Positions 1 through 43,532 of a DNA stretch of 64,000 bases are shown one piece after another (positions within the stretch are counted from its first letter, which is position 1; each line of letters opens with the position of its first letter). The translations under genes were made by a program, and so were the position numbers. The stretch spans positions 39,546 to 103,545 of IMG/VR virus record IMGVR_UViG_3300045988_058019; one strand, 5' to 3'. This stretch comes from a virus. The notes beneath the pieces were generated by a model. It was not told the DNA's origin, did no database searches, and saw only the letters and a list, made by a program, of their open reading frames with translations.

Positions 1-3000
1 GTTATATACAAAGTAAGGAAGATCTTGTACATGTATATCTTGCATCTGTGTAGGTTCTAACTATAACCAAGAGTCTGCAAAGTTTGAACTGGTTACGGTT
101 CTATGAATCTAATCACCGTGGAATAAATTCATATTAATAGTACTCTCAAATGGTATGTATGCGCCTATATAGTTCTTCATACCATCCCATTCTTTAGCGT
201 CAGGTAATTGGAATAGCATAGTATTAGGATAATCTAATAAACTTAAATAAGTATCTCCTCCAAATACGTATTTGCTGTCACGCGCTGCTATACTTATGTA
301 TACAGAATTCTATCTAGATGAAAATGTATTACCACCATATATAGAATTACCATCACGTTTAACGTTAAATACAGGAATAGCATTAGTAGAATCAAATGGA
401 TGGAGCTCTGGGTATTTGTTAGTAGGTACACTATTAAAACCTGCAAATGTTTTACTTAATTCAGGTACATGAGCTATGATACATGGACCAGCTGGACCTT
501 GTAATGATTGATTGTCATTATGAATAAAATCAGACATAGAATAATTAGTATAAGTTCTATTACCAACATTTATTCTTTTAGCTACAACATCAGGAGCTCC
601 ATACATATTATAATCTATATTAGGAGGATATTTAGCGTCTTCTATATATGATATATCTTGAGACTGACCAAAAGTTGGAACAAAGTATTTAGCTATAGAT
701 GCTCCGCGATATACCTTCTTGCCTCTACTATCCTAATAAGGAAATCCTACTGCTAATACATTAAGATCCCATCTTCTACCATAACCTACGTATGGTACAG
801 TATCTTGCTGCAATACTTCGCCGTTTATTTGAGTAACGTAATCTGCTGCAGCGAATATACTACGGCTTACACTGTTACCTATAGTATTACCATTAGTATA
901 GTTGTCTTTAAAATCATCAAATTTACTATCGTTTACCTTTCCACCAACAAATGGAGAATAGTATGAACCGATTCCATCTAAGTACACACTTCCTTCAAAT
1001 AGTCTAGTTACATCATCCCCTTGTACACATATCTCTGGAGATACAAGGCGTATATAGTCATTTGCCCTCATAGTAAGGGAGAAGTTACCAACGTCTTCAG
1101 CTGTACCTGTTGATATTGCTAGTTGTTCACCAATTAGACTACAGAAGAAAGGTGTGGGTCTCATTTCCAAACTACTATCTAACTCAGATCCTTGACCAAC
1201 CCACTTATCCTACTCTTGAATTCTATACTCATATACGTAACTACCTATAGTCTACATAAGCACAGTTCTATCACGTTCAGTTCTATCGCAACGAACTATT
1301 TCATAACTTACTGCACCAACAGGCATTTTCTTTACTTTAAATTCTACACCTAGAGCATTGCCTATAAGAGTATTGTTCTCATATTTAAACGGAGGCATTT
1401 GAGAAGCATGAGGCATTCTAATGTCACCTATCCAGAGTACAGGAGAAGCTACAGATTTATCATTATAAAATATTATACCAAATCTATACACTTCATCTCT
1501 CTAGTATCCTCTATAATTAGCAGCTATATAAGGATCAGCATAATTAGGTATATATGGATTATTCTTCTGCTCTTCAGTAGGCTGTAGTATTTCGGGCATC
1601 TTACTATCACCTCTGTTTATATATCTAGTGTTATTTCTAACAGTAGGTACATCCATACTACAGGATTGGTCTAATCTAAACTTATCTTGTTTATTACTTA
1701 GATTTATATCTGTAGTTACAAATGAATATTCTATATTGATACCATAACCGCCTAGTTCACCTTCCTTATTATATATGTATATATTCTGTGAATTAGATGC
1801 ATCCTTTGTATATTTTACATTGTTAAATGGATTTATACAGTCATGAGTAGCAGGAATACGTTTAATAGCTTCATCATCTGTTATAGACAGACGAATGTTA
1901 TTACTATCTAAACTAGATAATAGCTACACACTCCCTTCTGAATTAGCTCTGTAAGCTCTAGCATCATAGTCATTACCATCTTCATCTTCTGGTATCCAAG
2001 TATTCTCTGTTACATTAGCAGCAAATAATCTATTTTGCATTTTAGCAAGAGTCTATGCTATAAACTGATAACCAGTCATAGCATTAAATTCTTCTACAGA
2101 TATATCACTTAAAGTAGCTCCATAATCTACATACTGTATACTTGTTTGACCATCGGGTATATCTATTTCATCTACTATACTAATAGTAGGGGTAGAATTA
2201 TTCTGTTCATAGAATATACGAATTACTCTTAACTTATTAAAGTCCTAAAGTGATAATTCAGTAGATAGCATTACTGATTTATTTGATGCTTTATTCAGAC
2301 CAGTACCTTTATATTCAGAACTACCTTGGCTAGTTACACTATTTGTTAAGTGAATTAACTCACTCATTGGAGAAGTAACAGTTTCAGTGCCATGCACATT
2401 AAATAATTGATAACAATATGTTACCATTCCAGCTTTAAGATTACCTTCAGATAACCAACGGAATTTAAACGGCAATAAACTTACTACTGGAGTTATTTCT
2501 AATGAACCAGGATTGATTATATTCCCATTCTCATCTATAAGATTAGAATTGTCTATATACTCATTACTCATTATGTTAACAATCTTAATAGGACTGTTTC
2601 CATCAGTAAAGTATATCTTTATGTTAGTATCTGATTCATAGTTACCTACAATACTTAGTGTGGGATTCTTAGATAAATCTTCACACAACCCTAGAGCTCC
2701 TTTACATACTAATTTGATTTGAGGCATATTACTATCAAACCCCATTAATCTGTATATCTTATTAATGTTATCAGATGTTTTAGTTATTACTACCGCAATA
2801 TCATTTATAGTAGTAGTACCTATTATCGTCTCATCTTTAGGTATAATAGTATCATATTTTCTAGGGTTCTCTATACTTTGTAATACTCCTGTAGTTCCTC
2901 CATCATTAGTGATAACACGAACATCCTCAGCATATCTATACTGAGTATCCGGTATCAAATTTACGTCCTGGTCCATATTAAGACCTTGTGTAAACGTATT

Positions 3001-3009
3001 TATCTACAT
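1..3009 (-). CDS. Large virion/tail-associated protein, 3' end beyond window start; needs TAG read-through
   Basis: ORF-track fragments 310-606, 733-1170, 1252-1491 and 2245-2976 share one frame. A hand walk of 1-309, 607-732, 1171-1251 and 1492-2244 found only TAG in frame (61, 109, 310, 733, 1210, 1252, 1501, 1924, 2053, 2245) and no TAA/TGA. Start is uncertain (ATG 2976, 3009 or 3036). No family recognised. Confidence 0.6.
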
Positions 3010-3019
3010 ATTATTTTGT

Positions 3020-3670
3020 TCATTCTGCATAATCATTCTATTTATATTTCCATATATAACCATACGCAGACAACTATCTACCTTTGCAACAATCTCTTAT
3101 TCCTTCTTTCCTTCTATTTATTGATCTTGCAGCAAAACTTATACTGTAGAAACTCCTTATATACACACCATCTAACGTATATTGATCAACAGGAATTGTT
3201 CTATTTTTATTTATATAGTTGCTATTTTTTATCTTAACCGCTGGAGAAGGATTTTTAATATTCACCGGCCTTGGTTTACCTATTCTATTTTTAACTATCT
3301 TTGCTATAGACTCTTTAGTGTGGTGCCAACCGGCGTTATTTTTTGCACATTTTGCATTGTTATATTCAGGATTTAAATCTAAATATTTTTGTTCTATAAA
3401 CAAAATAGTGTCTTTTACTGGTTCACAATATTCTAATATTGCAAATTGGAAAGAAGTCTGTCCATATTTATTAAAAGCAGATTGAAGGTGCTTATTACCA
3501 TGTTTATCATGAAGTAATTTGCGTAAATGATCTTTTAACCTTCTTCTTACACAAAGTGAACTTCCAACATATGTTTTATTGTTTAGTATATTTTTAATTA
3601 TATATACTCCAGATGTTGAAGGAATCGTTTGTATATTTTCTCTATTAAAATTTAAAAATTCGGTACTCAT
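3020..3670 (-). CDS. GIY-YIG homing endonuclease (2 in-frame TAG)
   Basis: N-terminus GVYIIKN..KTYVGSS..RRRLKDH carries the GIY-YIG motifs. The ORF-track ORF stops at TAG 3074. Reading on gives CCKGRQLSAYGYIWKYKQNDYAE then TGA at 3020, restoring the YIWKY C-terminal motif seen in the paralogs at 30459 and 41379. The start ATG overlaps the upstream TAA (TAATG). Confidence 0.75.
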
Positions 3671-4599
3671 TATGGCCTATTCTAATTGTAAATATCTTGT
3701 CGTTCTCCTACTGTACTATAAAAAGTATCATGGGCATCTATTTCCGGGTATAATTTTAACCAGGAGTTCTACACTGAGGCCAAATCATCTACAGTAGGCA
3801 TCATAGCTTCAGCATATGCTTGCTTACGATAGAAGTTATAAGAGTTACGTATATCATAATAATCTCCCTGACTTATTTGACCTTTTAACTTTTTAGGATA
3901 CATTAACTTCATAGTAACATACCAGTATATGGCTTCCTTATAGGACTCTAAATCTGGTATCATTGGCATACTATCTTCATCTGTATATATAGCATAATAA
4001 GATATCTTAATATATCCCCTAGGTACATTAGTCATTATATAACCAGGTTTAGTCATATACTATAAATCGTAACTATACATAGTACCATCTTTATGACCTA
4101 TTCTATTACCTAAATATCTGCCATTTGCTGTAGGTACAGTATTCTAGTTTATTAATGCACTTAATGTTTCTCTAAGATTATTATCTTCATTTAACTTGTC
4201 CAATGCTTCTCTATCGTTAGTAAGATTAAACATATTCTTAACTAATGGAAACATAGCTGCATCCTGTATCAACATACAAGCTTTACTACAGCATTGATTA
4301 TCGTGAGATACACCAAAACTGGATGTTGCTTTTCTCATAGGTAACCAACCACCATTACAGCAGTATGAATATGCTACCTAATCTAATTTGTATAAATCAC
4401 AAGGCAATGATACTTGGTGACATTCTATTGGAAGTATTTCTACTTTATGCTCAAACTACTATATAGCTCCAATCTTGAGTATGGATTCCATAATCCACTC
4501 CCGAATATCTGTAATACGTATCTCATCTTCTCTTAAATCGAGATCTGCTATTACTTTAGCTACTACAGAAGCTGAACTAATCATACGATTATTTATCAT
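3670..4599 (-). CDS. Structural-module hypothetical protein (several in-frame TAG)
   Basis: Fragments 3769-4056 and 4144-4338 share a frame. Hand translation from ATG 4599 (ATGA overlap with the upstream gene) runs to TAA at 3670-3672 with only TAG interruptions. Confidence 0.55.
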
Positions 4600-5045: not shown

Positions 5046-5052
5046 ATATCAA

Positions 5053-7851: not shown

Positions 7852-8487
7852 TTAATATCTAACGTAGCGAACAGCTTTGCCACGTCCATATTCTGAGTAA
7901 GGTTCATACTCTTTTTCTCTTTCGAGCATACGTTCATAGTCATCTTCATAATCTCTAGCTCTGCTAGTAGAATATACTCTACGACCACCACGCATCATAC
8001 CACCTCTTCTACCACCTCTACGGAATAAGCCTATGCGTTCAAATTCGTCATCATCATCTTCTTCGTATTTATCACGCTTTTCAACTTCTTCCTCATAGCA
8101 TTCCATTTCAGCTTGTCTGATCTTATCACACATAACGTAAATATAGTAATACCACATCTTACCTTCATCAATGTCTTTATCATTGATCCAAGCCTTTGCC
8201 AATTCAACAAAATGCTTAGTACTATTAGAGTTAGTCATACTTATAATTACTTTATAGTAATCAGAATAAACCATGTTAAGTGCTACGAACCAATCATAAC
8301 GGTTAAATCTGCTACCCAGATTTATTCCGTACTGACTAGCTAATGCGGTAGTTTCTTCTACAGACCAATGCGGTCCACGAGTACCATCCTCATTTTCCAT
8401 TTTACTTACAGCTTTACGGGCATGTTCCTCATTGAAGTGAGGACCGTGTTCTGCTTCGTAAGCCTTTACACGAAATATTCTATGCAT
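7852..8487 (-). CDS. Hypothetical protein with acidic stretch and RGG repeats (no TAG)
   Basis: Intact ORF-track ORF with C-terminal EEDDDDEFERIGLFRRGGRRGGMMRGGRR. Visibly GC-richer codons. Confidence 0.6.
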   Translation of the reverse strand: MHRIFRVKAYEAEHGPHFNEEHARKAVSKMENEDGTRGPHWSVEETTALASQYGINLGSRFNRYDWFVALNMVYSDYYKVIISMTNSNSTKHFVELAKAWINDKDIDEGKMWYYYIYVMCDKIRQAEMECYEEEVEKRDKYEEDDDDEFERIGLFRRGGRRGGMMRGGRRVYSTSRARDYEDDYERMLEREKEYEPYSEYGRGKAVRYVRY

Positions 8488-8520
8488 ATTATTATTGATT
8501 AATATTATTGAATATATTGA

Positions 8521-9162
8521 TTATTGTTTAGGTAACTCAATTATGCGAGTATTGGTTACCTTGATTATTGGGTTACTGTTAACTATCTGATATTTTTTGG
8601 TACGTATTTTCTTCCAATCAAAGTGGAAGAACCTAACGAAGCCATTACGGTACTTGTTCTTGTATTCTTTCTTTTCTTCTACAAACAGAATCTGTTGATT
8701 CTTAATATCTAATGTGGCTTTAAGGATTGAGTCCTTCCTACTAACTATGATAGTTGTTAATGGATTAATTTTAAGTTCTTCGTCAAAATCTATTAGCCTG
8801 TGTTTTATAATAGTTCTAACAGAATCTTTAATCTCAGTATTGATTACATTTACATCAGTTAGGTTCTTGTCTTTGATTTTAAGCTTCTTCTAAGCATCCT
8901 TAGCTTCCTTTAATAAACTATCATTACTAGCATTTAGTTCTTCTATAGTAAGCTATAACACTCTGTTTAACTATTCCTTCTAGGATGCTAATTGTTCGTA
9001 AGCTCTAACATTGTTAGTTATTCTGTCAATCTCTTTATTCTTCTTTTGTAGCTAATGGTTCTAAACAAAAACAGTCGCAATAAGTAAACTAACTAAACCT
9101 ACTGCGACTGCTCTGAAATTCCTTGTAAACCAATTAACTAACTAATTCAGTATTGGAATCAT
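8521..9162 (-). CDS. Spanin-like protein candidate (N-terminal TM plus coiled coil)
   Basis: Hand translation gives MIPILNQLVNWFTRNFRAVAVGLVSLLIATVFV followed by a K/E-rich helical region, with TAA at 8521. The start lies inside the holin 3' end. Length is a multiple of 3. Confidence 0.4.
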
Positions 9163-9643
9163 CTGGTAATTCTTTATCTAATGATATATCTAAATATTTC
9201 TCTCCTTTTGCTTTTATAACCTTTTTGAGGATTTTCCATATTTTCCATTTAGGATATAAGTCGCTAAATGATTCTAGTAACGACCAAAACTCAACTAAGG
9301 CTATCATTCCTGCTACTATTTCTACAGCATGCAGGTTAATAGAGGTTACTACCAGCTAATCTATTATTGATGCACTAGTTATTGCTACTGCTGCATCTCT
9401 AGTCTTCCATATAGTTTTCCATGCTTTATGTGATTCAATCTTAGGATGCCCATATTTTTTAGAGACTTTATAACCATAGATAGCATCAAGTAGTATCAAT
9501 ATACCGACAGCAGTGATAGGAACCCATACAGGTGCGAATATAGAAAGTAGCCCAGTTATAACAGAAGCTACGCATTTATCCGCACTACTGAACATGTTCT
9601 TAAATATTGACATAGTATGTTCTCCTAATTGTTGGTAATTCAT
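9134..9643 (-). CDS. Holin-like membrane protein
   Basis: ORF-track 9356-9643 carries TM segments. TAG 9356 is read through for 73 codons (..EFWSLLESFSDLYPKWK..) to TAA at 9134. Confidence 0.5.
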
Positions 9644-9757: not shown

Positions 9758-10780
9758 TTAAGGTTTCTATTTTGAAAATCTTCTTGCATAAACTAATAGC
9801 TCTTTATAGCGTAATATTTTCTTTAGTAAGTTAATACCATTACAATGCTTAAGCCAACCTATGTGACTACACATTTCTTGTTTGTAATCTTCTACTGTAA
9901 TATGCTTCTTTCTACCTAATCTAGCAGCTTTCCTACACATGCTACGCTTAATATTCTTCCTTACTAAAGTATAGTTATGTCTTATTACATAACCTACAAA
10001 TGATATTCCTCTATCTTCTACTTTAAATACCTGATAGTTATCTTTAAAAGATAATTTTAAAGTAGCAATATACTACTTCATTTCTTCAAACAATTCTCGT
10101 AAATACTCTTTATCCTTATGTAGTATTACTATATCATCTGCATATCTGAAGTAATATTTAACCTATTTATCTTCTTTAAGCCAGTGGTCAAAGTAAGTAA
10201 GATACAGATTAGCAAAGAACTAAGATAAGTAATTACCAATAGGTACACCTTCTGCTGAATCTATTATCTCATCTAATAGCTATAATAACTTCTAATCCTT
10301 TATCTTCTTTCTTATTATGCTCTTTAATACTTCATGGTCTATACTAGGATAGAACTTTCTGATATCTAACTTAAGACAATAAGTAGTATTATCTACATCT
10401 TTTAAAGCTTCTTTAACATTATGTAATGCTTCGTGAATACCTCTGTGTTTAATGCAACTATAAGTATCTTTAATAAAGATAGATACCCATATAGGTTCCA
10501 TTATATTCATTACAGCATGATGTACTATTCTATCTGGATAATAAGGTAATCTAAATATTAATCTTTCTTTAGGTTCTCTAATTATAAATGTATTATATTC
10601 AGAAGTTTTATACGTACCGTTAATTAAATTCTGCTATAGTTTTTTAAGTAATTCTTCTTTATTCTAGTCAAACTCTTTGATATCTTTTCTACTAGATTTA
10701 TTTCTTCTAGCTTTCTTATCTGCTAAATATAAATTGTCTAAGCTAACAATCTTATCGAATAAATTATTATATCTCTTCAT
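9758..10780 (-). CDS. Diversity-generating retroelement reverse transcriptase (8 in-frame TAG)
   Basis: Hand translation shows RLPYYPDRIVHHAV, DIRKFYPSIDH, GVPIGNYLS[TAG]FFANLYL (DGR-type IGxxxSQ motif), YFRYADDIVIL (YADD at 10133-10144) and GISFVGY. It is in frame with ORF-track 10292-10510 and ends at TAA 9758. Confidence 0.9.
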
Positions 10781-10916
10781 AAATAATATTTTCTGAAATA
10801 CCTTCACGCATCTTCACTTTCGTTACCAATGCGTTCAAGAAGCATGTCATATTTTACCAAGAGGTAAGGTTCAGCCCTTGATTTTTTGTCAGTTTATAAT
10901 TTTTTTACGTATTTCA

Positions 10917-11012
10917 GTGTCCTGACATTAGCATTGGAATTGTCTAACTCATTGTTAGAATTCAAATTGAACAAACCTGCATTAGACTCATTGTCTGAGT
11001 TACTGCTGATTT
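10917..11012 (-). repeat. DGR template repeat (TR)
   Basis: Aligns to 11155-11250 at a constant offset of 238 nt. All roughly 27 differences are plus-strand T (minus-strand A) in this copy. In the VR frame it reads as an AAY-rich string (ISSNSDNESNAGLFNLNSNNELDNSNANV). Confidence 0.9.
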
Positions 11013-11041
11013 ACTCACGACTGCAACCTTTTATTGGTTAA

Positions 11042-28988: not shown

Positions 28989-28990
28989 AA

Positions 28991-29701: not shown

Positions 29702-30453
29702 TACTTAGATTTAATTTCATTAAGTATTGCTAATTTAATATCTTGATTCTTCTTATCCTTAAGATAAGCAATTACATCTTCAAGACCATTACCAATTAAA
29801 TCAGTACCAAAGTAATATTGAGCACGATTCTTTCTAATAATGTTTTTAGCAATAGCTTCTTCAATTACGAAGTTAATTTCTTTATTAGGGTTATTTACCC
29901 ATTTCATCAAGAACTTAGAAGGATCAGCTTCAATAAATTCTGACAGTTTAGCTTCAGCAACCTCATTAGACATAGAATCTGATTTCATACCATAGAGACG
30001 TAAACACTTACGCATTTCTTCAGTAGACATCTTATCCATCTCTCTATATGCTTCACGCTTAACTTTATTGAACTTGTTCTGTTCTTCTGCTTCACTATCC
30101 TTATTAATCATAACATAATCAGTGCTAGGCTTAATATCGTTAAGACCATTAGCTACTCTCTTATGTTTCTTAAGGAATAGGTATTTTAATTCATCCTCAG
30201 GTCTATTAGTATCCAATATTAAATCCTTTTTGCCAATCTTAATAGCAAAAGTATCCCAAAACGCACTATTAGGAGATAACTATCCCTCAGGATAACCAAT
30301 TTCTTTTTCTAATCTGGTTGCATCTTCTGCAGATAAACCAGTATATAAATTACCAGATCTAGTCCAGTAAGAGCTTACATAATCAAAACATGTAGGCCAT
30401 TTAGTAATCCCAGTCCAGGGATTAGTTTTAATTATTCTAACGATTACTTCCAT
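29701..30453 (-). CDS. Hypothetical protein, 250 aa
   Basis: ATG 30453 is in frame with ORF-track 29701-30216, with one TAG in between. Confidence 0.5.
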
Positions 30454-30458
30454 AATTA

Positions 30459-31469
30459 TTAATTAGATTGTTCAGTTAGTTGTTCTTTATATTTCCAGAT
30501 ATACTTAGCGTTGTTCCAAGCACGTTTATTATTTGGATCTATTGGATTTTGCAATTGTCTTTGTATACCTCTTCTATCACAACCAGATTCTCTAGATGCT
30601 TCAACAATAGAAACATATTCTTTAATTATATTGCCATCTTTATCATATTGATTTATAGCTTTAGCTACTTTTAAACCATTTTTAATGGCAATACTCTTTT
30701 GTTTTTCAGTTACCTTTCTATTCTTTCTAGATTCTAAATCAGCTTTTCTACAAGCTTCTGATATAGTAGGCTTCCAATCAGGGTCTTTAGCAAATAAACT
30801 AGCTGGAACTGTTTTAGGTACATCGGGGTAGTCTTCTTTGTAAACCCAAATGTAAGGATTTACTTTAGAACCAGTTATATTTCTACCCTTTAACGCATTA
30901 GATAGAGTTGTAACCTGTATTCCTGTTAATCTAGACGCTTCGTTTACACCACAATACTCTGATATAAATTTACCGTCTTTAGTGTATTGTAGCACTGGTT
31001 TTCTTCTAGAAGAACCAATATTTCCGGAATTGCGATAAGCTTCTCTTGCTTCTGTAATTATTTTTCCAGCTTCAGATAGTTTAAGTCTAGTGGCTTCGGT
31101 AACTTCTCTACCAATAGCTTTTTGACGAATCTTTTCTTTGGTTTCTTCAGTATGGCGTCTACCAAAAGTTCCGTCTCCGCCTTCAGTCATATTATAACCA
31201 AATTCATCTTGCAATGATTTATATTCGGAAATATAATATTGTTCTTTCTCGGTGAGTTCTTCCCAACTATTGCAGAAATCTATAAGTTCTATTGAGAAGT
31301 TCTCTTTTCCATATTTTCTTATAGCATTATGTAACTTGAAAGGGCATCCGTGCTCGGCACTATAGATGTGTTCTTTCCACCGAGCACTTATACCTTTACT
31401 TGTGATACCTATATATACTTTATTATTAACCTTGTTTGTTATTTTATAAACATCATATGAACGCATCAT
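30459..31469 (-). CDS. GIY-YIG homing endonuclease (no TAG)
   Basis: VYKITNKVNNKVYIGITS..ARWKEH, YNMTEGGDG, repeated K..S....G helix modules and a C-terminal KYIWKYKE. Confidence 0.8.
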   Translation of the reverse strand: MMRSYDVYKITNKVNNKVYIGITSKGISARWKEHIYSAEHGCPFKLHNAIRKYGKENFSIELIDFCNSWEELTEKEQYYISEYKSLQDEFGYNMTEGGDGTFGRRHTEETKEKIRQKAIGREVTEATRLKLSEAGKIITEAREAYRNSGNIGSSRRKPVLQYTKDGKFISEYCGVNEASRLTGIQVTTLSNALKGRNITGSKVNPYIWVYKEDYPDVPKTVPASLFAKDPDWKPTISEACRKADLESRKNRKVTEKQKSIAIKNGLKVAKAINQYDKDGNIIKEYVSIVEASRESGCDRRGIQRQLQNPIDPNNKRAWNNAKYIWKYKEQLTEQSN

Positions 31470-31552
31470 AATATATAATATTTTTTGTTATATATTATAT
31501 AACGTTAACCGTGCCGCAAGGTTCCTAATAATTGTATAAAAAAGTTAGTTTA

Positions 31553-33022
31553 TCACTCTGCTTCCATGATTAGTTCCCCACACGCACGTGGATCCCTTAA
31601 CATTATGCCCATTTCTCCAAGGAAGAATACCGTGTAGCCGTCCTTACCATTAGATCTCAGAGTATTAATAGACTTACCATAGCCAGACGGAAGAACTGCA
31701 CCACCAGTAGTCCAAGTTACGAATTCACGATCCTTACGAACTACCTTAACGATGTTAGCTTCACCATCACGTCTACCCAGATCCAGGAATGTCATACGAT
31801 ATGATTCCAGCGGTTTCAGAGTAACCGGATGCAACTTACGATTGTAAGTAATATCGTCGTACAGCGGGAAATACTTCAGAGTCAACTCGATACCATTAGT
31901 CATCTTATAAGTCTTGAACTGACCACCGAAAGTAAGACTATCACCAGAACCAGTTACAAATACAGTATCAATAAGGTTCATGTTAACTACCTTTTCCTTC
32001 AGAATTCTATCGAATTCACGGATACCCATTTCACCAGTCAATGCAACAAACTTACGTTCGTTAGTACCAAGTACATTGTAAGACAGGTCAAACAGGAAGT
32101 CTTCTAGCAATTCTGCAGTAAGATGAGTATAGTAACGTCTGTTAGACGGAGCAATCTGTTCCAACAGACCAGCACCAATAAATACTGGACGACCGTTAGT
32201 ACCCTTCAGATTACAAGAACCATCTTTGTTTACATTAGATTTCATGTAAACCAACATACGTTCACATCTCTTATACCATTCACGCAGAGCTACCCATTCC
32301 TGATAATCAGCCCACAAATAAGACTTCTTACCAGTCTTAGGATCTTGCAAAGCAATAGCCATTACTGTAGAATAAGCTGAACCAGTAATATCATAGTTGA
32401 TACGAATTGTAGTAAGATAATTACGCATCTTGAAGTGAGTATTATAGTTCAGGATATCACCCTCTTCACTGTACTCTTCAACAGCAGAAGCCAGACGAGA
32501 TACTTGGCAACCCGGTTTCAAGAGTTCTGCAGGAATATAAGAAGTAGGCTGACCATCAGCTACAAAACAAGTATATACCCACAAGTTACCATCTTGGTAC
32601 GGAGCACCTGCTACACGTACTTGGAATTCCTTATCGTCAAATTCCAATACAGCAGTAGGACCAAACCAGTTATCTTCTAACCACAGCATAATCGGTGTAT
32701 TGCCAAGACCTGCAGTTGAATCATCTGTAATAGCTGCGCCATTCCATTTTGCATCTCTAATTGTAACTGCTCTATCGGCATCAATCATTACATTCCACTC
32801 CCAGCTCGGTTGATCAATGGTCATTACATTACCAAGACCACCAGTAAGCATATCCAAAGAAGTGTTGTAACCATTATCTTTGGTACCGAATACATAGGAC
32901 AACACAGTAGCAACCTGATACGGATTCTATTGTGATGCTGCAGAAATCTTAGCGGTATCAATCAAATCACTGAACCACTTACCTTTATACAGTACCAAAT
33001 TATTCAGAATATTATTATCCAT
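31553..33022 (-). CDS. Major capsid protein candidate (crAss-like), 489 aa
   Basis: Size, visibly GC-richer codons, and position after the portal and an acidic scaffold-like gene. ATG 33022 is in frame with ORF-track 31553-32905. There is a single TAG at 32927, and the gene ends with TGA. Confidence 0.65.
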
Positions 33023-33053
33023 AAAATACTAGTAAATTAATTTTTAGTTATTA

Positions 33054-34214
33054 TTAATTAGCACGCAATCTTCGTGCGAAGGAATTCCACATAGACTCGG
33101 TGCTAGTGTTATCCTGTTTATTAGTCTTTCTACTTACTCCTGTTCTATTAAGGCTATTTTTAAACTTGTTAATAGCAGCATTTTGACCTTTTACTTCAGC
33201 AGCTTTTACAAGCGTATCTCCTTTCATAGTAAAGTAGGCAGACTCAATTAAATTTTTTACGCTCTTAGACCAATCTTTTTGAAATTTGGTCATACCATCA
33301 GAGGTAGGTTTGAATATATATTCCAACAGTATTTGTTTATCCTTTTCAGGAATTTTAACACCGCGAATATTATCCATGCCCTTTATTTCGTTGACAACGG
33401 TATCAAAGTACTCCTGTTGACGTTGGGCTGCAAGCTTAGCGGCATTTTCTTGGTCTTTCAATAGCTGTTGTTTCTTATTCTCTCTTATGTCCTTAAGGGC
33501 TTCAGCAGCATCTTGAGACTCATCTTCAAGAATACCGGCTTCCTCATATTTAGTAAGTTTCTTTTCAATCTATTTAGCATTAAAACCCTTTTCTTTAAGG
33601 AATTCTTTCAATACTAACTTCTGATTACTTTCATCTTCGAGGTCGATATCATCAAGATCAATTTCATTGTCAATTGAGAAATAATCTCTCAAATTACCAC
33701 CATTCTTAACAAACTTATCAAGTTGCTCAACTTCTTCACTAGCGTATTGTGGTACTGAGTTTTCTTCAATTACATCGTTAAAGTAATCAATAAGATCTTC
33801 AACGGTCTTGGGTTTATCATCATCCTCAATGTCATCCCAACCTAACTTTTCAGACAAAGAATCAAAGAAACCTGTTACTATGGTAGTTTCATCAGTAGAC
33901 TCTTCTGGTTCTTCTTCCTCAACTTCAGGTTCTTCTACTTCTTCTTTTGTAGTAGTTTTAGGTTTAGCCTTAGGTTTAGATTTTACTTCTTTATCTTCTT
34001 CCTTAGATTCTTCCTCTTCCTCAGGTTCAGTTTTAGTATTCTTACGAATGTTATCTAATTCTTCTTCACTGAGTTCTTCTCCTACTCCTTCAAGATCAAT
34101 TTTTGTTTCTTCCTCTTCCTCATTAGTAGGAGAAACAATAGGTTTATTCTTTACACTTGCTCCTGGCATGAGATCCTCAAATACCTCAAAACCGTTCAAT
34201 GTTACATTATCCAT
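33054..34214 (-). CDS. Acidic scaffold-like protein, 386 aa
   Basis: Fragments 33570-34214 and 33054-33461 are in frame, joined by TAG 33570. There is a long E/D/K-rich N-terminal region. The function call rests on position and composition only. Confidence 0.45.
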
Positions 34215-34232
34215 AATTATATATAATTAGAT

Positions 34233-34640
34233 TTATTGTATTTCTTTAAGTTCATTTATTTCATGTTTGAGTTCATCGATAGCTTCATCAATGTCCTCTT
34301 CTGATTCACTTTCTTCTATATTGTATTCCTTATCAGTTAGACAGTATCTAGATACTAATAGATCAAAGTAATATCTCAATTCTTCTTCATTGAAATATTT
34401 CTAATTAGTTAGTGCATCTAATTCCTCTCTAGTGAGATTTTTAGCATATAGTGGATCTGTCCTAGGATCGAAAGTAGAATAACATGACTAATCTAACCCC
34501 GTATAGCTACCATCGTAATAATTGAATATAGTATCGGTACAATATACTGGAGTGAATGTTTCGACGTACTATTGCTGCTTCTTGGCAGCTCTAATATAGG
34601 TCTATAATTTTATTTCAACTGTTATCGGATCTACTATCAT
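34233..34640 (-). CDS. Hypothetical protein, 135 aa (acidic C-terminus)
   Basis: Hand translation gives MIVDPITVEIKLQTYIRAAKK...EEDIDEAIDELKHEINELKEIQ. ATGA overlap with the upstream gene. Confidence 0.45.
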
Positions 34641-35734
34641 ACTAATGTTTTATTATTCCCATTACTAGTAATTGGAACTGAATTAAAATCTTTCACAAAC
34701 TACCTTTTACTTTTATAAGTATTAAATAGTTTTTTCATATTATCGTTATCAGAATTAAAAATCAAATCCTTTATTTGTTTCAATCCTACTTTACTATCAG
34801 GTTTCAATAGATTTTTATTTATCATGTTAGTCCTAAATTCATTCATATGCGATTTAGTTTCTTCAAAGTTATGTAAATATCTCTAAATCCAATCATACGT
34901 TTTAGGATACATAGTTTTAGTCTTTTTGGTATCTACGAATCTATTATCAAATATAGGCAAACTTAATGCTCCTGCTTTCTAATTATCATAATGACTTTTT
35001 TCATGACTTATTAAACCTGGCTATAATTTACCATTCTTAACGTAATCAGAATTAATAAATACATAGTCAGGTATATTAGGATCGAAAGAACCATTAGCAC
35101 TCATTGGTTTTATTCCGATCTACATTAAATCAGGAGAATTTTTACTTTTTGCATAATTCTATAACTATTTTGTATAAGTTTTTACATAGTTTGTACCATA
35201 TTTTTTATCAAAATTAGCTGCTCTTCTTAATGCATCCTCATTCTCTATAAGGCGCTCGTAACTAGCGTTTCTATCTTCAATAGCCTACTAATATAATTTA
35301 ATCCTACCATCTCTATAATTTTTTGCTTCGTCTATAGCATTATCTATAGCTTTCTTATTTACCGTAGGTATTTCTCTTTTAGGAGTAACGCCCTTGTACT
35401 TCTTTCTAAAGTTTCTAACAGTAGTAGGTACGAATGATATCATAGTAACCGCAGCTAATCCAGCACCTAACCAATCTCTATTCTTTACCGCATTATAAGT
35501 ATCTCTAGCTGATATAGCGTCGCCAATAGGAGTCATATTAGCAGCATCTTCAAGACTGAATACAGGTTTTAAGCCTTCCTCTAAAGGTCTACCACTACTA
35601 CTTCTACCTGTAGCTTGGAAGAATTTCTCCTTCTCAGGATCGCCTGTCTGACCACCATCTGCAAATGCTTCTACCTTCCAATCCCAATAGCCTTTACCGG
35701 GATTATTCTCCCGGTAAGACTTTAGGTTTTGCAT
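34637..35734 (-). CDS. Hypothetical protein with HEKSH (HExxH) motif
   Basis: ORF-track 35288-35734 extended through several TAGs to TGA 34637. An alternative ATG at 35761 is also in frame. Confidence 0.5.
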
Positions 35735-35771
35735 TCTCTATTTAAATGCTTGTTTATCCATAATCTTTCAA

Positions 35772-35825
35772 TTATTTCTTTCCGCCTTTTCCACCTTTGG
35801 ATTTCTTTCCGCCCTTGCAAGCCAT
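35772..35825 (-). CDS. 17-aa Lys/Gly-rich micro-ORF MACKGGKKSKGGKGGKK with strong SD
   Basis: AGGAGG lies about 8 nt upstream of the ATG. The ORF ends in TAA. Too short for confidence. Confidence 0.3.
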   Translation of the reverse strand: MACKGGKKSKGGKGGKK

Positions 35826-35840
35826 AATTAATTCCTCCTA

Positions 35841-36305
35841 TTATTTAATTGTTTTAAGATATTGTTTCCAATTCTTCTTATTAGCCTTATATGTCTTCTT
35901 TCTATCCTTAATCTTGTACTTATCAAGATCTTCAGGCTTACGTGTTTTCAGATAATCAAAGTTATCATCATTAGCATAAGCTTCCATCTCATAAGGAATA
36001 GTATAGTAAGCACTAGATGCAGGATAAATAATCGGATTACCTTTAATCCATTCCCATACATAAGACCAATAATAACTTATCCATCTCTTCTTATCTTTAG
36101 CTTCATAAAGATGAATATTTTCATGATTCCAAGTAGTAGGCTTAATCTGAGATTCAGGTTTTCTACTTAACAAGTAACCACACCAGCTCATTGCAGAATA
36201 ACCACTAAATGGATAATGATCCATATGCTTATACTCTACTTTATCTGCTTTTACTTTAGTAAATAGTTGTTTAACTATCCACCATGTTTCTTTAAACCAA
36301 TTCAT
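35841..36305 (-). CDS. Hypothetical protein with HENIH (HExxH) motif, 154 aa
   Basis: Intact ORF immediately downstream of the portal gene. Confidence 0.55.
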   Translation of the reverse strand: MNWFKETWWIVKQLFTKVKADKVEYKHMDHYPFSGYSAMSWCGYLLSRKPESQIKPTTWNHENIHLYEAKDKKRWISYYWSYVWEWIKGNPIIYPASSAYYTIPYEMEAYANDDNFDYLKTRKPEDLDKYKIKDRKKTYKANKKNWKQYLKTIK

Positions 36306-36307
36306 AA

Positions 36308-38788
36308 TTATTTACTCTTTTTAGCTTCTGCGTTTGTCTTATTCTTAAGTGCTGTCTTAGCTTTTAATCTTTCTCTCTCCATTGCTGCTTTATCTTTAGC
36401 TGCTTGCAACTTCATTTCGTGATCCATTCTTTCTCTTTCAAGCTGATTTTTCTTATCTTCTATCTCTTTCTTCATCTTCTGCTCTCTAATCTTAGCATTG
36501 AATTCAAATTGTTTAGAAGCTTCATCAGATGCTTGCTTACGTTCAGCTAAAGCTTGTTGAGCTATCTCTACTGGATCTGGAATTCCATTACCGTCTTGAT
36601 CCATATTCTCAGCACCTCTATAGGCATTAAGTTGAGCTACAGTAATCTTAGTAGCATTATCTTGATCTATCTTATATTTCTCAAGATCCATTTCTGCTTC
36701 TTTAATCATGAGCTCCTCTTCCTTAATCTCATTTTGCATCTGAATAGCTTGCTGTTCACGTTCTGCTTGAGCTTGTTCCATAGCTTGTTGTTGCTCCATA
36801 CGTTTTTGCTCAATTTCCTCTAATCTAGACTTAATCATACTAATATTATCCATAGTAATGATTTCAGCTATATCAAGTAAGCTAGCTCCGTTCTGCATAG
36901 CAGGTTGCATTAACTGCTTAAGTGTTTCTATATACTGTTGATTCTTAGTAGTATCTTCTATAAAGATATCAAAATCCTCATAAAGCATATCATCTGATAG
37001 CGTTAAGAATGCTCTAGTAGCATCATCTAATATATATTGTAGATGAGTTTTACTACTATCTTTCCAAGCCCATCTAGCAGTATTAAGTAGCATAGTTAAG
37101 CATTCTCTCTTTACCTAATTGTGTGTCCAGAACCAAGGTTCAGTAATATGAGCTGATTGTACTACAGAACGCTCTACATTACCTACTAATTCATTAGATG
37201 AAATAGACCCTTCTCTTTGCTTACTAACTCCAGATATCTCAGATAGCATACTTTCAATCTTATCCATAAGATTAATATACTAATCTATAGTATTAGCCAT
37301 AGTAAGGTCAAGAGCTGTAATCTAGTTAAACTGACTAGGTTTACCTCCTTCTCTACCAGGTATATCCCATCCTTCTTCATACGGATTAATAAAGTTTACA
37401 CCAAGAGCAGATAAATAATGCATCCATTTAGATACATCTATATTCATAGATTTTGGTATCTAAGTAATATCCATATTTACTACTTTACCTTTATCTCTAG
37501 CCATAGCAAGCTCAAGTCTATACCATAGTACAATATACATATACTGTAATGGTTTCATCATGCTTACTAAACTACGTGGTCTACTGTTTGTATTATTATA
37601 TACTACTCCAGTATAAGGCAATCTCTAAGAGTTAGGATTATCAGATGAAGTATATTGATATTCTAATGGTTGTATTCCTATATATAAGTCTTCTCCAGCT
37701 CTATATCCTTCCCATACTTCGGTAATCCATTTCCATTCTACATTAAGTTCCATCCCGGTCTCTTTATAGCTCTCATCTACTTGATATTCTTTAGGCTCAC
37801 CTAATTCAGGATCAATTATAGTAACAAAACCTATTTTCTTAAATGATTTCCAGCAACAGTGCCATACTTTCACACTATTAGTACTATCAAATGGATTACT
37901 ACTGAATCCGTTAATAGTATGTGTTTTAATATGAGTATAGTCTAAAGATGTCTTTCTTACTTCAGGATTTATACCTCCTTTAGAAGCTTGATCCATCATA
38001 TCTAACAACTAATTTAGCTGTTTCTCAGACATCTTATCGTATAATCTATCATATAGTTCAGTTACAGACATATTCATTTCATAACAACACCATTCTGCGT
38101 CATGAATGAATTCCAAGTCGGACGTTTCAGTATCATAATCAAAGTAGATAGGATTAACACGTTCGAGGCACGGTTCTCCATTCAGTATACCTACATAGTA
38201 TATCTCTTCACCACCAACTAAAGCATCTTTCCAACCTTTGAAGAATTCATGAGTAATGTTTAACTTATTTTTTAAGTAATTAAGACTGTGATATGCAGTT
38301 ACTTCTGCTATATCTTTATAGTCTTTACTCATGTATTTTTGTATCTACTAAGGAGTCATTATCTCACCATTCTGTAAAGCTTCCTAGTATCTAGCTTGTT
38401 CTTCAGGACCTAATTTACTCATTATAGTAGCCTGAATGTAATCTATTAAAAGCTATTTAGCTCTATCCTACATTTCACTAGCAGCTATATCACTTGTACG
38501 TACTACTCTGAAGTTGAATGGTCTTTTAGTTTCTTCTCCCAACAGTAAGTCTATTTTGGGCTTAATTATATTATAATCCTAAGCCATTGCAGGAAAGCCA
38601 TCCTGCTATTTAAAAGGATTAGTAACATATTTCAGATCTTTTTCATTGTATATACTATTATAAAGATCATAGTATGTTTGCATCTCCTCTCTGCGAGTTC
38701 TGTTATTACCATTTCTAGAACCTCCTAAACTACGACCTATAACATAGTCTATACAACTTTCTTGCCAGTCTTTTGTCTTCTTAGACAT
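36308..38788 (-). CDS. Portal protein candidate, 826 aa
   Basis: Four ORF-track fragments (38606-38788, 38009-38332, 37625-38008, 36308-37093) share one frame and are joined by TAG. It sits directly downstream of TerL and ends at TAA 36308. Confidence 0.7.
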
Positions 38789-38829
38789 AGGAAGTTTCTA
38801 TATTGGCATTTGATTAATATTATTCATAA

Positions 38830-40911
38830 TTAAAACATATATGCTTCGATATTATCTATAGCTTCGTCGTCACGAAACCATTCCTGAGTAAATATAGGGC
38901 CTTCAAACAGTACCCTATTTCTATTCTCTTTTTTAATCTCTTTTACTTTAACATTATATAGCTATTCTCTATATATCATTACTTGGGTCAACGCCATTAC
39001 ACGGTCTACGTTAACTACATCGTTTGCAGCTATAAGTTCCTCTAATAGCGGTTCCGACATTATATTGTATAAGTTCTTCTTGCCATCTGCATTAATATCG
39101 TTAAGCCAATCCTTTATTAGACCCCATCCCCATTGCTTAATCTATTTATTCATGTGGCAACCTTTCTTTCTATTTACTTTAGAATTACTTACTATATCGT
39201 TAATTATATCTGGTTGATCAGCAAGTAAGTAGTCACAATGCTTATTAGTAAAGTAAACAAATATGCCTTTATTTTGATTCTCATACATTGCTCTAGCATT
39301 ATAGTATATAAGTAATTTACGTACATTTTCATAAAAATCTTCTGCTGACTTAGGTCTGCCTGTGTACTCTGCTACTATTATATCTGAATACTATTCTATA
39401 GACTATACTCTCTTATATATAAAACAAGAACCCAAAGATGTAGTACTTGATTCATCATAGTCGTATGAGTCTATACCTGCAATATACAAACCAGCACTAG
39501 CATCCTTATTAGGATGCTCCCATATTACTATAGAACCAGTAGGATCATCTCCTACTAATGCTCCAGTAACTTCATCCCTTTTAGTTCTTAATGGGTAATG
39601 TGTTATATCTCCTGTCTTCTTAATAACCCATTTAAGACTACCGTCAGGTTGCCATACTAGATCACCTACCTACTTATGATTCTATAATTTTTTATTAGTT
39701 CTGAGTAATGATAACTACTCTTGTAATTCCTTCTTGGGGAATATGTTACCATTAAACTCTAGCATGGCCTCTGCTGGAGTAATAGGTCTCTCTGCAACGT
39801 ATCTGTCAACTGCTGCGTTATTAGTGGCATTAGTTATTACTACTTGCCTTTCTGCTAATATGTGTTCTAAAGACTTCTTACGGTACGTATTACCGTCCTC
39901 GTCCATATATATACGTTTACCATTCTCATCACGTATATCTAAGTTAGTATATTGAGGTACAAAGAAACCACATTTATTAGTAGTAGCAGACTCATCCCAT
40001 ATGTTATCAAACCCTAAACAATTGTATCCATCAGGGTTGTAAAACATATCCTTCATAGTTTCAAATGCAGAACCTTCATCACCACCAGTACCCCATACTA
40101 TCATAGTACCAAAGGCTATACCATCTACCTCTACAGAAGGTCTAGCAATTTGCCATGCTGCTCCTAATTCAGAGAAAGAACCACCTTCCTCAAACATAAT
40201 AAGATTAGCTTTCTTACCACGTACTACATCAGGATTATCTTTCAAAGTAACCCCTATAATCTCTGACTTATAACCTAATTCTATAATATTACCGTAGTCA
40301 TCCTTAGTATAGAATCCTGCACGTCTACGCATCTAAGTGTTAACTGATCTCTTCTTACCCCACGCAGTATTCTTATCTATAAAGTCCATATAATCCCAAG
40401 CTTTAGTAAGAATACCATCATCTGTCAAATACTATTTATTTGATGCATATATGAAGGTTTTAGAGTATGGTATTAGATAGAAATTACGGCATGCCATAGA
40501 ACCACCTTTGTATGAAAAACCTTTACGTCTAGACTTAAGTAAGCATAAATGTTTACCCTACTCTTGGGCTTCCTATACTGCATTAAAATAGTAATAGTCG
40601 TAATCCCAGAAGTCGGGGAAAGTTACCTCATTAACACGTTTTACTTTAGTATTACCTAATTCATCTGTAGTAATATGATTGACTATACGAGATATAGGAC
40701 AATAGTTTAAATAAAAATAGTTATACCCACTAATGAAATCTCCATCATCAGCAGTATAACCATCTACGCATCTTTTACTTTCCTCATCCCAGAACTTAAA
40801 ATATTCTGAAGTACCTTCTGGATATACGCAATAAGAACCAGTAGCTATAAACTATAGTGCTGGTCCTCTAAATTTATTACTATTTACTATCTTCTTATTA
40901 AAGTCTACCAT
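38830..40911 (-). CDS. terL: Terminase large subunit, 693 aa
   Basis: ATG 40911 is in frame with ORF-track 39715-40332. Hand translation shows ATPase and RNaseH-like nuclease regions (..IMFEEGGSF.., ..LYIAGIDSYDYDE.., ..AEYTGRP.., ..YYNARAMYENQ..). There are multiple TAGs and TAA at 38830. Confidence 0.85.
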
Positions 40912-40912
40912 A

Positions 40913-41098
40913 TTATAATTTTATATCCCAAGTATATTCTTCTTCTGTAATATCTGTTTGGTTAGGCGGATATGATAAATAATCGCAAGTGGGACACATG
41001 CTATATAGTTCATCAATCATTTGCAAGAGTTCTGGAACATTTGGGAAATTCCTGTTCTCTTCGTTTCCACCAACATTTAAACTTTTCATATTCTTCAT
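40913..41098 (-). CDS. Small hypothetical protein, 61 aa
   Basis: Intact ORF abutting the TerL start. Confidence 0.4.
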   Translation of the reverse strand: MKNMKSLNVGGNEENRNFPNVPELLQMIDELYSMCPTCDYLSYPPNQTDITEEEYTWDIKL

Positions 41099-41378: not shown

Positions 41379-42359
41379 TTAAGCAGTCTGCTTGCAGTCA
41401 GACTGCATTAATTCTTTCTTCCAGATATAACCTTTACACGTCTTAGCTCTACCATTGCAAGCTCTCTGTATAGATTTATAGTCAGTGTTTACTGCCTTAG
41501 CCGCATTGTGCATTCCCATATAAGTAGCTACTAATATATCATCTAAAGTATACTGGTAAACTAAATACTTAGTAGATGCCACTCTTAGTTTTTCTTTTTG
41601 CTCTTCAGACATCTTTTTACCTTTATTCAATCCAACCATACCTTTAACCCAGTTAGAATTGCCAAAATATACTTTATTACGTTTATATCTCTTAACCAAG
41701 GTAGATTTATTCTTTTCATACTCTTCTAACCATAATGGAATGTTAGACTTTTTATCTTCTAATTCTTCTTTAGTATATGCTGCAATAAAATTATTACAAA
41801 ACGGGTGGATGTAATTATTGTTGCATAGTCTACCTATATTAGAGCGACTCAGGCCTGTAATAGTTGCTGCATCCTTGATAGTCCAAGCATATATATAATA
41901 TCTATCAATAAAATTATATAAATGTACACGCTTACCGAATGTACCGTTTGCTACTAATTTTTTAGTATTTTCAGATACTTTCTTCTTTTGCTCTTCTGTC
42001 ATCTTGAGTCCAAGAACTCCAAAATCACCACCTTTAGTACAATTGTATCCCTCTGTATAAGCGTTGTATTTTTCAATATACTCTATTTCTAATTTGTCTA
42101 ATGTTTGAATTAGTTCTAAATTAGAAATATTTGGATCTGGAATAAATGATTCCAGTATATCTACAGTAAAGTTATGAAAACCGTACTTATTTATTGCTCT
42201 ATAAATTGGTAAATCTAATTTTCCATTCTTAGCATTTCGCATATGGTCTTTTAGTCTTGATCTTAGTTTAACACTTTGACCAATATAACATTTACCATTC
42301 ACATTATTTTTGATTATATATATACCAGCTAACTTTGGATCTATATCTCTGTATGTCAT
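41379..42359 (-). CDS. GIY-YIG homing endonuclease (no TAG)
   Basis: GIYIIKNNVNGKCYIGQS..LRSRLKDH, YNCTKGGD and a C-terminal CKGYIWKK. Confidence 0.8.
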   Translation of the reverse strand: MTYRDIDPKLAGIYIIKNNVNGKCYIGQSVKLRSRLKDHMRNAKNGKLDLPIYRAINKYGFHNFTVDILESFIPDPNISNLELIQTLDKLEIEYIEKYNAYTEGYNCTKGGDFGVLGLKMTEEQKKKVSENTKKLVANGTFGKRVHLYNFIDRYYIYAWTIKDAATITGLSRSNIGRLCNNNYIHPFCNNFIAAYTKEELEDKKSNIPLWLEEYEKNKSTLVKRYKRNKVYFGNSNWVKGMVGLNKGKKMSEEQKEKLRVASTKYLVYQYTLDDILVATYMGMHNAAKAVNTDYKSIQRACNGRAKTCKGYIWKKELMQSDCKQTA

Positions 42360-42382: not shown

Positions 42383-42460
42383 TGGTTGGGGCGGCAGGGC
42401 TCGAACCCGCACATCACAGAGGTTTAGAATCTCCGGTACTACCAATTATACCACGCCCCA
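42383..42460 (-). tRNA. Suppressor tRNA, anticodon CUA (reads UAG), probable Gln identity
   Basis: The reverse complement folds as TGGGGCG-TG-GTAT/AATTGGTA/GTAC-C-GGAGA/TTCTAAA/CCTCT-...-GCGGG/TTCGAGC/CCTGC-CGCCCCA-A-CCA. It has a perfect 7-bp acceptor stem, U33-CUA-A37 (anticodon at 42425-42427), a canonical T-loop and an encoded CCA. U1-A72 resembles bacterial tRNA-Gln. The variable region looks slightly long (about 7 nt). Confidence 0.85.
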
Positions 42461-42505: not shown

Positions 42506-42643
42506 TTAGAACCAAGATTTAATTCTTTGCCATAATGACTTCTTTACAGGTTTGTTCAAATATTCAGAAGCTTCTTCAATCTGTCTAAATACTTCGTCTG
42601 TATCCTTAGTCAAGTCTATAGTAATCGTAAATTTCTTATTCAT
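42506..42643 (-). CDS. Small hypothetical protein, 45 aa
   Basis: ATG..TAA ORF MNKKFTITIDLTKDTDEVFRQIEEASEYLNKPVKKSLWQRIKSWF. Confidence 0.3.
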   Translation of the reverse strand: MNKKFTITIDLTKDTDEVFRQIEEASEYLNKPVKKSLWQRIKSWF

Positions 42644-42700
42644 AATATTTTCATTTATACACTATAACGTGTTGTTAGTATTTGGTTATATTTTAATGTA

Positions 42701-43231
42701 TTATCTTGCCAACTCGTATGGATTTACTTTAGCGTCACCTTTAACTTTGCCTATAGCTACTTCTTCCGCTTTAACCATAGTCTCTAGTGAATCTATACTT
42801 TTGAGTACTCCACCTACAGAAGTCATACCGGCTAATAAATCCTTAATCTTCTTTTCGTCTAAAGTATCGTCTAATGATTCTTTATAGTATTTACTCACAC
42901 TATCTAGTTTTAGACGCATATTATTTAGCATTTGTAGAGCTCTAGTGTTAAGTAGGTTCTTATATTCCTCTTCACAAATTAGTTCTTCAGAAGTTAATTT
43001 ATAATTTTCATCATTAAATATTTCCTTCTTTAATTTAAGCTCTCTACTATCTTCATCCATACTTTGTACATAAGGACTATCCCATTTATTCATAAGTACA
43101 ATGTAACTTATTACTTTAGAAGAATGCTCCTTATCTGGCTTATCAGTATCCCACACCTTTTTAAAGCATGGGATACCTATAGCATCAGGATGTATTACTA
43201 CCTTACCACCAACAATATCAAATAATTTCAT
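42701..43231 (-). CDS. Hypothetical protein, 176 aa
   Basis: Intact ORF-track ORF ending in TAA. Confidence 0.55.
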   Translation of the reverse strand: MKLFDIVGGKVVIHPDAIGIPCFKKVWDTDKPDKEHSSKVISYIVLMNKWDSPYVQSMDEDSRELKLKKEIFNDENYKLTSEELICEEEYKNLLNTRALQMLNNMRLKLDSVSKYYKESLDDTLDEKKIKDLLAGMTSVGGVLKSIDSLETMVKAEEVAIGKVKGDAKVNPYELAR

Positions 43232-43532
43232 TTGTAAGAACTTGTTTATTATCTTCTTTATTCCATCTTATAAGATCGTCTTTAGCAAAAGCGTCAGAAC
43301 AGACTATTGGTTTTAATGTCCACTTACTACTTATAGTATCATATTTACTTAATATGAGTACAATATCTCCTAGTTTATAGTCTATTACTTCCTCTTCTGT
43401 TATTATTTGACCATCCTACTATGCTATATATATAGTTCTACATTCAAAGTTGTCAGATATATTTTTAATGCTATTAGTATCTACTTTATATAAAATAGCA
43501 TTACCGTATTGATCTATCAATAATTTATCCAT
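43218..43532 (-). CDS. Hypothetical protein, 104 aa (TAG-TAG doublet in frame)
   Basis: Hand translation gives MDKLLIDQYGNAILYK...IYIAQQDGQII...NEII then TGA. Length is a multiple of 3. Confidence 0.45.

Follow-up and report, generated by a model that had tools for sequence, protein, structure and literature searches.

The stretch examined here is a window of 64,000 nucleotides (nt), positions 39,546 to 103,545 of IMG/VR virus record IMGVR_UViG_3300045988_058019. Its left-hand part is occupied by a late block of minus-strand genes whose reading frames are punctuated by in-frame TAG codons, and this use of TAG is the subject of the present analysis. A tRNA gene with the anticodon CUA sits just upstream of the gene for the terminase large subunit (TerL), between it and a block of genes that carry no TAG, and early genes follow on the plus strand (Table 1). 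By sequence comparison, the source is a crAss-like phage of the human gut (Crassvirales, Suoliviridae) near Blohavirus americanus cr53_1 (crAssphage cr53_1, RefSeq NC_055889.1), and approximately two thirds of its genome lie in the window.

Table 1. Features of the window, with coordinates in window positions. Gln, glutamine; DGR, diversity-generating retroelement; aa, amino acids; E, expectation value.
Feature	Position	Strand	Properties	Support
Late block (virion, packaging, tail, lysis, DGR)	1..43532	-	TAG=Gln code; 38 genes, 158 TAGs, ends only TAA or TGA	
GIY-YIG homing endonuclease	3020-3670	-	2 TAGs	
Lysis cassette	8521..9643	-		functional names from cr53_1 annotation
LysB/spanin-like gene	8521-9162	-	7 TAGs/13 Gln codons	cr53_1 annotation
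Holin	9134-9643	-	1 TAG	cr53_1 annotation
DGR	9758-13603	-	reverse transcriptase 9758-10780, template repeat 10919-11011, variable repeat 11157-11249	
DGR reverse transcriptase	9758..10780	-	8 TAGs/11 Gln codons	phrog_1423, E 3e-119, residues 1-327
GIY-YIG homing endonuclease	30459-31469	-	0 TAG; insertion relative to cr53_1	
Major capsid protein	31553..33022	-	489 aa, 1 TAG/12 Gln codons, stop TGA	phrog_11589, E 2e-132
Portal	36308..38827	-	839 aa, 14 TAGs, stop TAA	phrog_6547, E 2e-162, residues 7-831
TerL	38830..40911	-	693 aa, 12 TAGs (52% of its Gln codons), stop TAA	phrog_6681, E 1e-150, one stretch, residues 18-670
GIY-YIG homing endonuclease	41379..42359	-	0 TAG; 24 nt downstream of the suppressor tRNA; insertion relative to cr53_1	
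Amber suppressor tRNA	42383..42460	-	anticodon CUA, CCA end encoded	ARAGORN; Rfam tRNA 45.5 bits (gathering score 29)
Nine co-directional genes upstream of the tRNA	43534..47261	-	TAG-free, standard-code compatible	0/20 Gln codons, P = 0.001
GIY-YIG homing endonuclease adjoining thyX	47421-48140	-	5 TAGs; within the otherwise TAG-free block	phrog_314, residues 2-203, spans all 5 TAGs
HNH/AP2-like homing endonuclease	48914-49549	-	0 TAG	
Two tRNA-Leu(UAA) genes	52391-52476, 55089-55172	+	early region	ARAGORN, Rfam
RAGATH-6	53087-53237	+	early intergenic	Rfam, above gathering score
RAGATH-7	53300-53499	+	early intergenic	Rfam, above gathering score
Three Hatchet ribozymes	54201-54324, 54464-54560, 56896-56997	+	early intergenic	Rfam, above gathering score
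Early genes with TAG as real stop	57188-57421, 57696-58163, 58643-58870, 60577-61038	+	sole TAG 1-11 codons before the next TAA	
RAGATH-9	58427-58588	+	early intergenic	Rfam, above gathering score
Permuted tmRNA-like match	59811-59992	+	early intergenic	Rfam, 56 bits against a gathering score of 47
ECF-type sigma factor gene (Sigma70_r2/r4)	61466-62026	+	standard code, early region	Pfam

An earlier, sequence-only reading of the window had proposed that the late and structural genes are intact only if TAG is decoded as a sense codon, listing 37 breaks between same-frame fragments that were all said to be TAG. All 37 read CTA on the plus strand and lie in frame, as TAG, in merged minus-strand open reading frames (ORFs). 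They are a sample of the full count, which comes to 158 in the 38 minus-strand genes within 1-43532 when gene models are drawn with TAA and TGA as the sole stops. Nine gaps that had been walked by hand do hold only TAG in frame, the sole TAA (16937-16939) being a gene's own stop at the gap edge. The genuine gene ends that had been placed at TGA 31553, TAA 36308 and TAA 38830 are likewise correct, and PHROG profiles identify the genes concerned as those for the major capsid protein, portal and TerL, as had been named.

Across the 13,753 codons of the late genes neither TAA nor TGA occurs in frame; their presence within merged models had been put forward as grounds for abandoning the idea. At the rate of 0.091 per codon with which these triplets occur in the two other frames of the same genes, ∼1,250 were to be expected (log10 P about -569). 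With TAG as sense, the longest ORF extends to 1,198 codons, compared with a maximum of 219 in 100 shuffles. Gene re-prediction, a check suggested at the same time, raised the coding density of positions 1-43600 from 0.545 with the standard code to 0.961 with TAG as sense, whereas TGA as sense, included as a control, gave 0.588 and no comparable gain in ORF length. Reading TAG as sense renders the late operon tightly tiled again. The standard table leaves 45% of the late region apparently non-coding and splits all of the large virion genes; the correct table restores the 38 genes.

At the level of individual genes, TerL, portal, major capsid protein and the DGR reverse transcriptase each yield a single full-length profile stretch running across the TAGs, which, together with the restored density, bears out the proposal that these genes are intact only with TAG as sense. 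The lysis cassette (8521-9643) gave no PHROG match. The TAG load among the late genes is uneven (heterogeneity P < 5e-5). TAG makes up a small share of Gln codons in the Mtd-like tail protein (2/25), gp82 (0/10) and the major capsid protein, the last not significant when taken alone, and a large share in TerL (12/23), gp89 (10/15), the reverse transcriptase and gp62 (6/8). The spanin-like gene (7/13) and the tail-tube gene (50%) also have a large share, although neither is significant alone.

The identity of the amino acid inserted at TAG was examined by several routes. Eight relatives that use the standard code in portal, TerL and major capsid protein genes have no in-frame TAG in these genes, and some of the genes end in TAG. 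At the 27 columns of these three proteins in which the window has TAG, the closest standard-code relatives, cr10_1 and cr1_1, have CAA or CAG in 34 of the 54 cells, against a background Gln frequency of 4.7%. A genome-wide tblastn comparison with cr10_1 placed Gln at 31 of 84 aligned TAG positions, which equals the conservation seen at ordinary Gln positions (0.41). Under an empirical substitution model, the log-likelihood at TAG positions relative to cr10_1 was -194 for Gln, -250 for glutamate and -252 for lysine, leaving Gln ahead by ∼55. TAG columns in five other recoded relatives likewise give Gln.

Column decoding of this kind, by profile and alignment, is the code inference that the sequence-only reading had called for, and an equivalent check, codon interchange with the close relative cr53_1, gives the same answer. 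The two phages share 119 conserved TAGs; where a TAG has changed, the counterpart is now CAG or CAA in 14 of 21 cases for window TAGs and 28 of 41 for cr53_1 TAGs, and no interchange with TAT, TAC, TGG, TTG or TCG was observed between the two. Additionally, TAG and CAG do not differ in the distribution of the next base (p = 0.99), and the TAGs occur evenly along genes. Since alignment columns, likelihood, interchange with CAG and CAA, and following-base context agree, these sequence comparisons indicate that TAG encodes Gln in the late block, where it constitutes 29% of all Gln codons.

The tRNA(CUA) gene, which would supply the mechanism, had been overlooked in the sequence-only reading, even though the recoding that was proposed there stands. 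The predicted cloverleaf has D and T loops of the usual kind (GG, GTTCGAG) and a short variable loop of 7 nt. The tRNA shares U1-A72, G2-C71, G3-C70, G10, C34, U35 and A37 with E. coli tRNA-Gln, including a Gln-like acceptor stem; these positions act as identity elements for glutaminyl-tRNA synthetase (GlnRS). Homologous CUA tRNAs, annotated as tRNA-Gln, are found in the same place upstream of TerL in seven other Suoliviridae genomes. A scan for sigma-70 promoters and terminators around the tRNA returned fewer promoter-like sites than shuffled sequence, a result that carries no information for a phage of Bacteroidota that has an RNA polymerase of its own. Bacterial genomes were also scanned for a host tRNA-Gln similar to that of the phage; the one match, in a Pirellulaceae metagenome-assembled genome, is not a tRNA, the search pattern having been too specific.

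The CUA tRNA of the relative cr113_1 (4297-4387), also annotated as tRNA-Gln, is 91 nt long and has a long variable arm (type II, as in serine, leucine and tyrosine tRNAs), and the TAG columns of that phage still align with Gln. Suppressor tRNA scaffolds are heterogeneous in this family.

That TAG might be sense but specify another amino acid (pyrrolysine, lysine, glutamate, tyrosine, serine, leucine or tryptophan) was considered against these data. ARAGORN labels the tRNA 'tRNA-Pyl', although this is its name for any CUA tRNA; glutamate and lysine are the next commonest residues in TAG columns; position 73 is A in this tRNA and G in E. coli tRNA-Gln; and the long variable arm in cr113_1 is of the sort expected of a serine, leucine or tyrosine tRNA. 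However, the likelihood margin in favour of Gln is large, TAG exchanges with CAG and CAA but only rarely with AAG or GAG, the ordinary D and T loops and short variable region are unlike those of tRNA-Pyl and of bacterial tyrosine, serine and leucine tRNAs, even the cr113_1 columns point to Gln, and proteomics of related phages found Gln, leaving a different amino acid very unlikely. Pyrrolysine decoding was also assessed as a specific candidate and rejected: a pylT-type tRNA, with its short D loop, 3-nt variable loop and atypical T loop, does not match the canonical D and T loops and 7-nt variable loop seen here, and the residues in TAG columns are Gln as opposed to lysine-like. Pfam scans of the TAG-free genes in the window returned no pylS or pylBCD-like match.

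Next, the use of TAG outside the late block was examined. The replication module lies outside the window, and the test of the early code covers 22 genes on the plus strand (50-64 kb) and nine on the minus strand (43534-47261). Internal TAG is absent from the plus-strand genes, which have 113 Gln codons (P = 2e-17); TAG is the terminal codon of four of them (at 57419, 58161, 58868 and 61036), each time with T as the next base. An out-of-frame ATG coincides with or adjoins three of the four stops. At 57415 and 61025 it is the start codon of the following called gene, which the TAG overlaps; five bases past TAG 58161 the sequence shows an ATG in a different frame, at which no gene was called. Conservation of all four TAGs in cr53_1 indicates that TAG is a real stop in these genes, and the back-up TAA 1-11 codons downstream implies that suppression in the late phase would add only a short tail. 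Given early genes without internal TAG, four of which end in TAG, it is concluded that the genome uses two codes, with TAG as a stop in early genes and as Gln in late genes.

This pattern also bears on whether the code is simply that of the host, which might read TAG as Gln or have a suppressor of its own, rendering the phage tRNA dispensable. The recoded relatives cr7_1 and cr272_1 show no CUA tRNA in the 14-16 kb examined, and recoding and detectable suppressor tRNAs agree imperfectly in the survey of Yutin et al. (PMC7886860), both of which would fit such a scheme. However, complete avoidance of internal TAG in the early genes, and early TAG stops with a nearby back-up TAA, only make sense if TAG terminates early in infection, and a conserved CUA tRNA is retained at a conserved position. 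Moreover, no Bacteroidota host is known to use code 15. A host-derived code is regarded as highly improbable. The remaining notion, that TAG is a genuine stop and the late genes are fragmented (as pseudogenes, through assembly or sequencing artefacts, or as many short pieces), accounts for the many short same-frame ORFs obtained with the standard code but can be dismissed, given the want of in-frame TAA and TGA where ∼1,250 were expected, TAGs conserved codon for codon in an independently assembled relative, the same recoded proteins on hundreds of public contigs, profiles that run straight through the TAGs, and fragments that lack start codons and spacing of their own.

Collectively, the window very probably derives from a two-code crAss-like phage in which TAG in late genes is read as Gln by means of a phage-encoded amber suppressor tRNA. 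Within this reading, the recoding, its confinement to late genes, the identity of Gln and the presence of the tRNA are observations made here. Early genes, on the plus strand at 50-64 kb and in the minus-strand block of 43.5-47.3 kb, are written such that the standard code of the host can read them. The remaining steps would be as follows. The tRNA(CUA) at the head of the late block would be transcribed and processed, most likely charged with Gln by the host GlnRS, and would compete with host release factor 1 (RF1) at UAG, such that late mRNAs could then be translated to full length. The recoding might in this way serve as a timer that delays lysis and virion proteins or prevents them from being made too early, in line with the proposal of Borges et al.

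Several points weigh against this reading. The Gln assignment comes from sequence in this phage, the peptide proof having been obtained with other crAss-like phages, and the timer role is proposed by analogy. The positional switch is not clean: upstream of the tRNA, the gene at 43218-43532 has two adjacent TAGs and the endonuclease gene at 47421-48140, the one recoded gene beyond 1-43532, has five, while seven genes inside that interval carry none. Relative to the GlnRS identity set of E. coli, the tRNA differs at G36, U38 and G73 (A38 and A73 in the phage), although departure at G36 is obligatory for every amber suppressor, and the A31-C39 pair is mismatched. Shuffling the sequence does not significantly worsen the folding energy (z = -0.96), and the identification of the tRNA consequently rests on ARAGORN and Rfam. 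Finally, Pfam scans of the TAG-free genes in the window revealed no release-factor or aminoacyl-tRNA synthetase gene, and the cr53_1 annotation lists neither.

The relationship to cr53_1 merits closer description. Positions 28000-41000 of the window match NC_055889.1 at 93.9% nucleotide identity over 81% of the 13 kb query. For the window as a whole, 81% aligns to cr53_1 with the same gene order and 87-98% identity, apart from one short thyX stretch at 69%. The RefSeq record is assigned to Suoliviridae, Loutivirinae, Blohavirus americanus, with human faeces as the source. TerL, portal and major capsid proteins of the crAss type, together with synteny and high identity, place the window in Suoliviridae and Blohavirus. 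On the part of the genome seen here, identity falls below the usual species line of at least 95% across the whole genome, for which reason the phage is, as far as its sequence allows, probably another species of the same genus.

That TAG reassignment is an established class had been recognised in the sequence-only reading, and NC_055889.1, the nearest RefSeq genome, is indeed annotated in this manner already, with full-length portal, TerL, major capsid and tail genes across the TAGs. It shares with the window the TAG-recoded late block, the 119 common TAG codons and the CUA tRNA adjoining TerL on its upstream side, annotated there as "tRNA-Gln". The window differs in having another suppressor-tRNA allele, identical to that of cr114_1, two extra GIY-YIG endonuclease insertions (30459-31469 and 41379-42359) and a divergent thyX region. 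Conversely, TerL of cr53_1 has an in-frame insertion of ∼1.1 kb (7926-9023), an intein according to annotations of related records, that the window TerL lacks (junction at 40071-40072). When translated with TAG as Gln, the major capsid protein of the window has residue-for-residue copies on 262 public contigs, and the cr53_1 portal is a member of a cluster of 2,853 in public protein collections.

Among the other elements in the window, the variable repeat of the DGR lies near the 3' end of the Mtd-like tail gene (11042-13603). The template and variable repeats are 73% identical, with the differences located at template adenines on the coding strand. The permuted tmRNA-like match at 59811-59992 was not called by ARAGORN; the standard-code relative cr10_1 has an annotated tmRNA.

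Five homing-endonuclease ORFs are present in the window. In that at 47421-48140, the last ∼28 residues repeat the C-terminus of the upstream ThyX (48127-48927) with 50% identity (E = 1e-6), a repeat that reads as a duplicated thyX 3' end of the kind left by endonuclease or intron insertion.

The endonuclease gene beside the suppressor tRNA presents a different picture. The tRNA(CUA) of the window is identical at 78 of 78 positions to that of cr114_1, which belongs to another subfamily, and unlike that of cr53_1 despite ∼93% identity genome-wide. Among IMG/VR contigs, all 10 measurable contigs with the allele of the window have an endonuclease-sized insert between the tRNA and TerL, and 3 of 36 with the cr53_1-type allele have such an insert before TerL; each of the two alleles is present in several lineages. 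The endonuclease itself is 99.9-100% identical between phages whose flanks are 82-93% identical. Allele identity, linkage to the insert and endonuclease identity above that of the flanks tentatively suggest that the suppressor tRNA might not be a fixed, vertically inherited gene but part of a mobile cassette with the TAG-free GIY-YIG homing endonuclease, an arrangement that may be new. This idea is advanced as a possibility somewhat short of an even chance. Were it correct, homing could spread or replace the determinant of the code switch among co-infecting phages, and the endonuclease, being TAG-free, could act before the switch.

A precedent for such an arrangement exists in phage T4, in which SegB is a GIY-YIG homing endonuclease encoded within a tRNA gene cluster. 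As there, a GIY-YIG endonuclease gene directly adjoins a tRNA gene in the window, and the way in which the alleles are distributed suggests joint inheritance of the tRNA region and the endonuclease. Unlike the T4 case, the neighbouring tRNA is the code-switching suppressor of the genome, and both cleavage and homing are putative.

With regard to the tRNA itself, the nearest well-known counterpart is E. coli supE (the glnV amber suppressor), which inserts Gln at UAG in competition with RF1. The phage tRNA is likewise a type I tRNA with the CUA anticodon and has the same U1-A72, G2-C71, G3-C70, G10, U35 and A37, but it differs in A73, A38, the 7-nt variable loop and the A31-C39 mismatch. Moreover, the phage-encoded tRNA serves a whole gene block, whereas supE rescues nonsense mutants.

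Late-gene recoding of amber to Gln, as found here, is an already described and well-documented strategy in this group of phages. The 'Delta group' of crAss-like phages (Guerin 2018, Yutin 2021) reassigns TAG to Gln, mostly in late genes, and has suppressor tRNAs (PMC7886860); the window shares the recoding, its restriction to late genes and the suppressor tRNA. Peptides with Gln at TAG were detected by liquid chromatography-tandem mass spectrometry in two crAss-like phages, with none in early proteins (Peters 2022, PMC9523058); these are other genomes, of 94 kb and 191 kb, whereas the recoding in the window is known from sequence. A model for the timing of late-gene expression and lysis has also been proposed (Borges 2021, bioRxiv 10.1101/2021.08.26.457843). 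As in the code-15 phages of these two studies, structural and lysis genes of the window are recoded and the other genes scanned, which do not include replication genes, are standard; a suppressor tRNA is again present, and TAG is favoured in the spanin-like gene. A code-change module of the Jade/Lak type, with release factor 2 and/or an aminoacyl-tRNA synthetase by the tRNA (Borges 2021), was not found among the TAG-free genes of the window. Mgcod and other gene callers that are aware of reassignment already exist. The window therefore adds another instance of late-gene amber-to-Gln recoding in Suoliviridae, and may contribute something beyond these known systems in its clean evidence that one genome uses TAG in two ways, in its suppressor-tRNA alleles linked to an endonuclease and in the uneven TAG load among its late genes.

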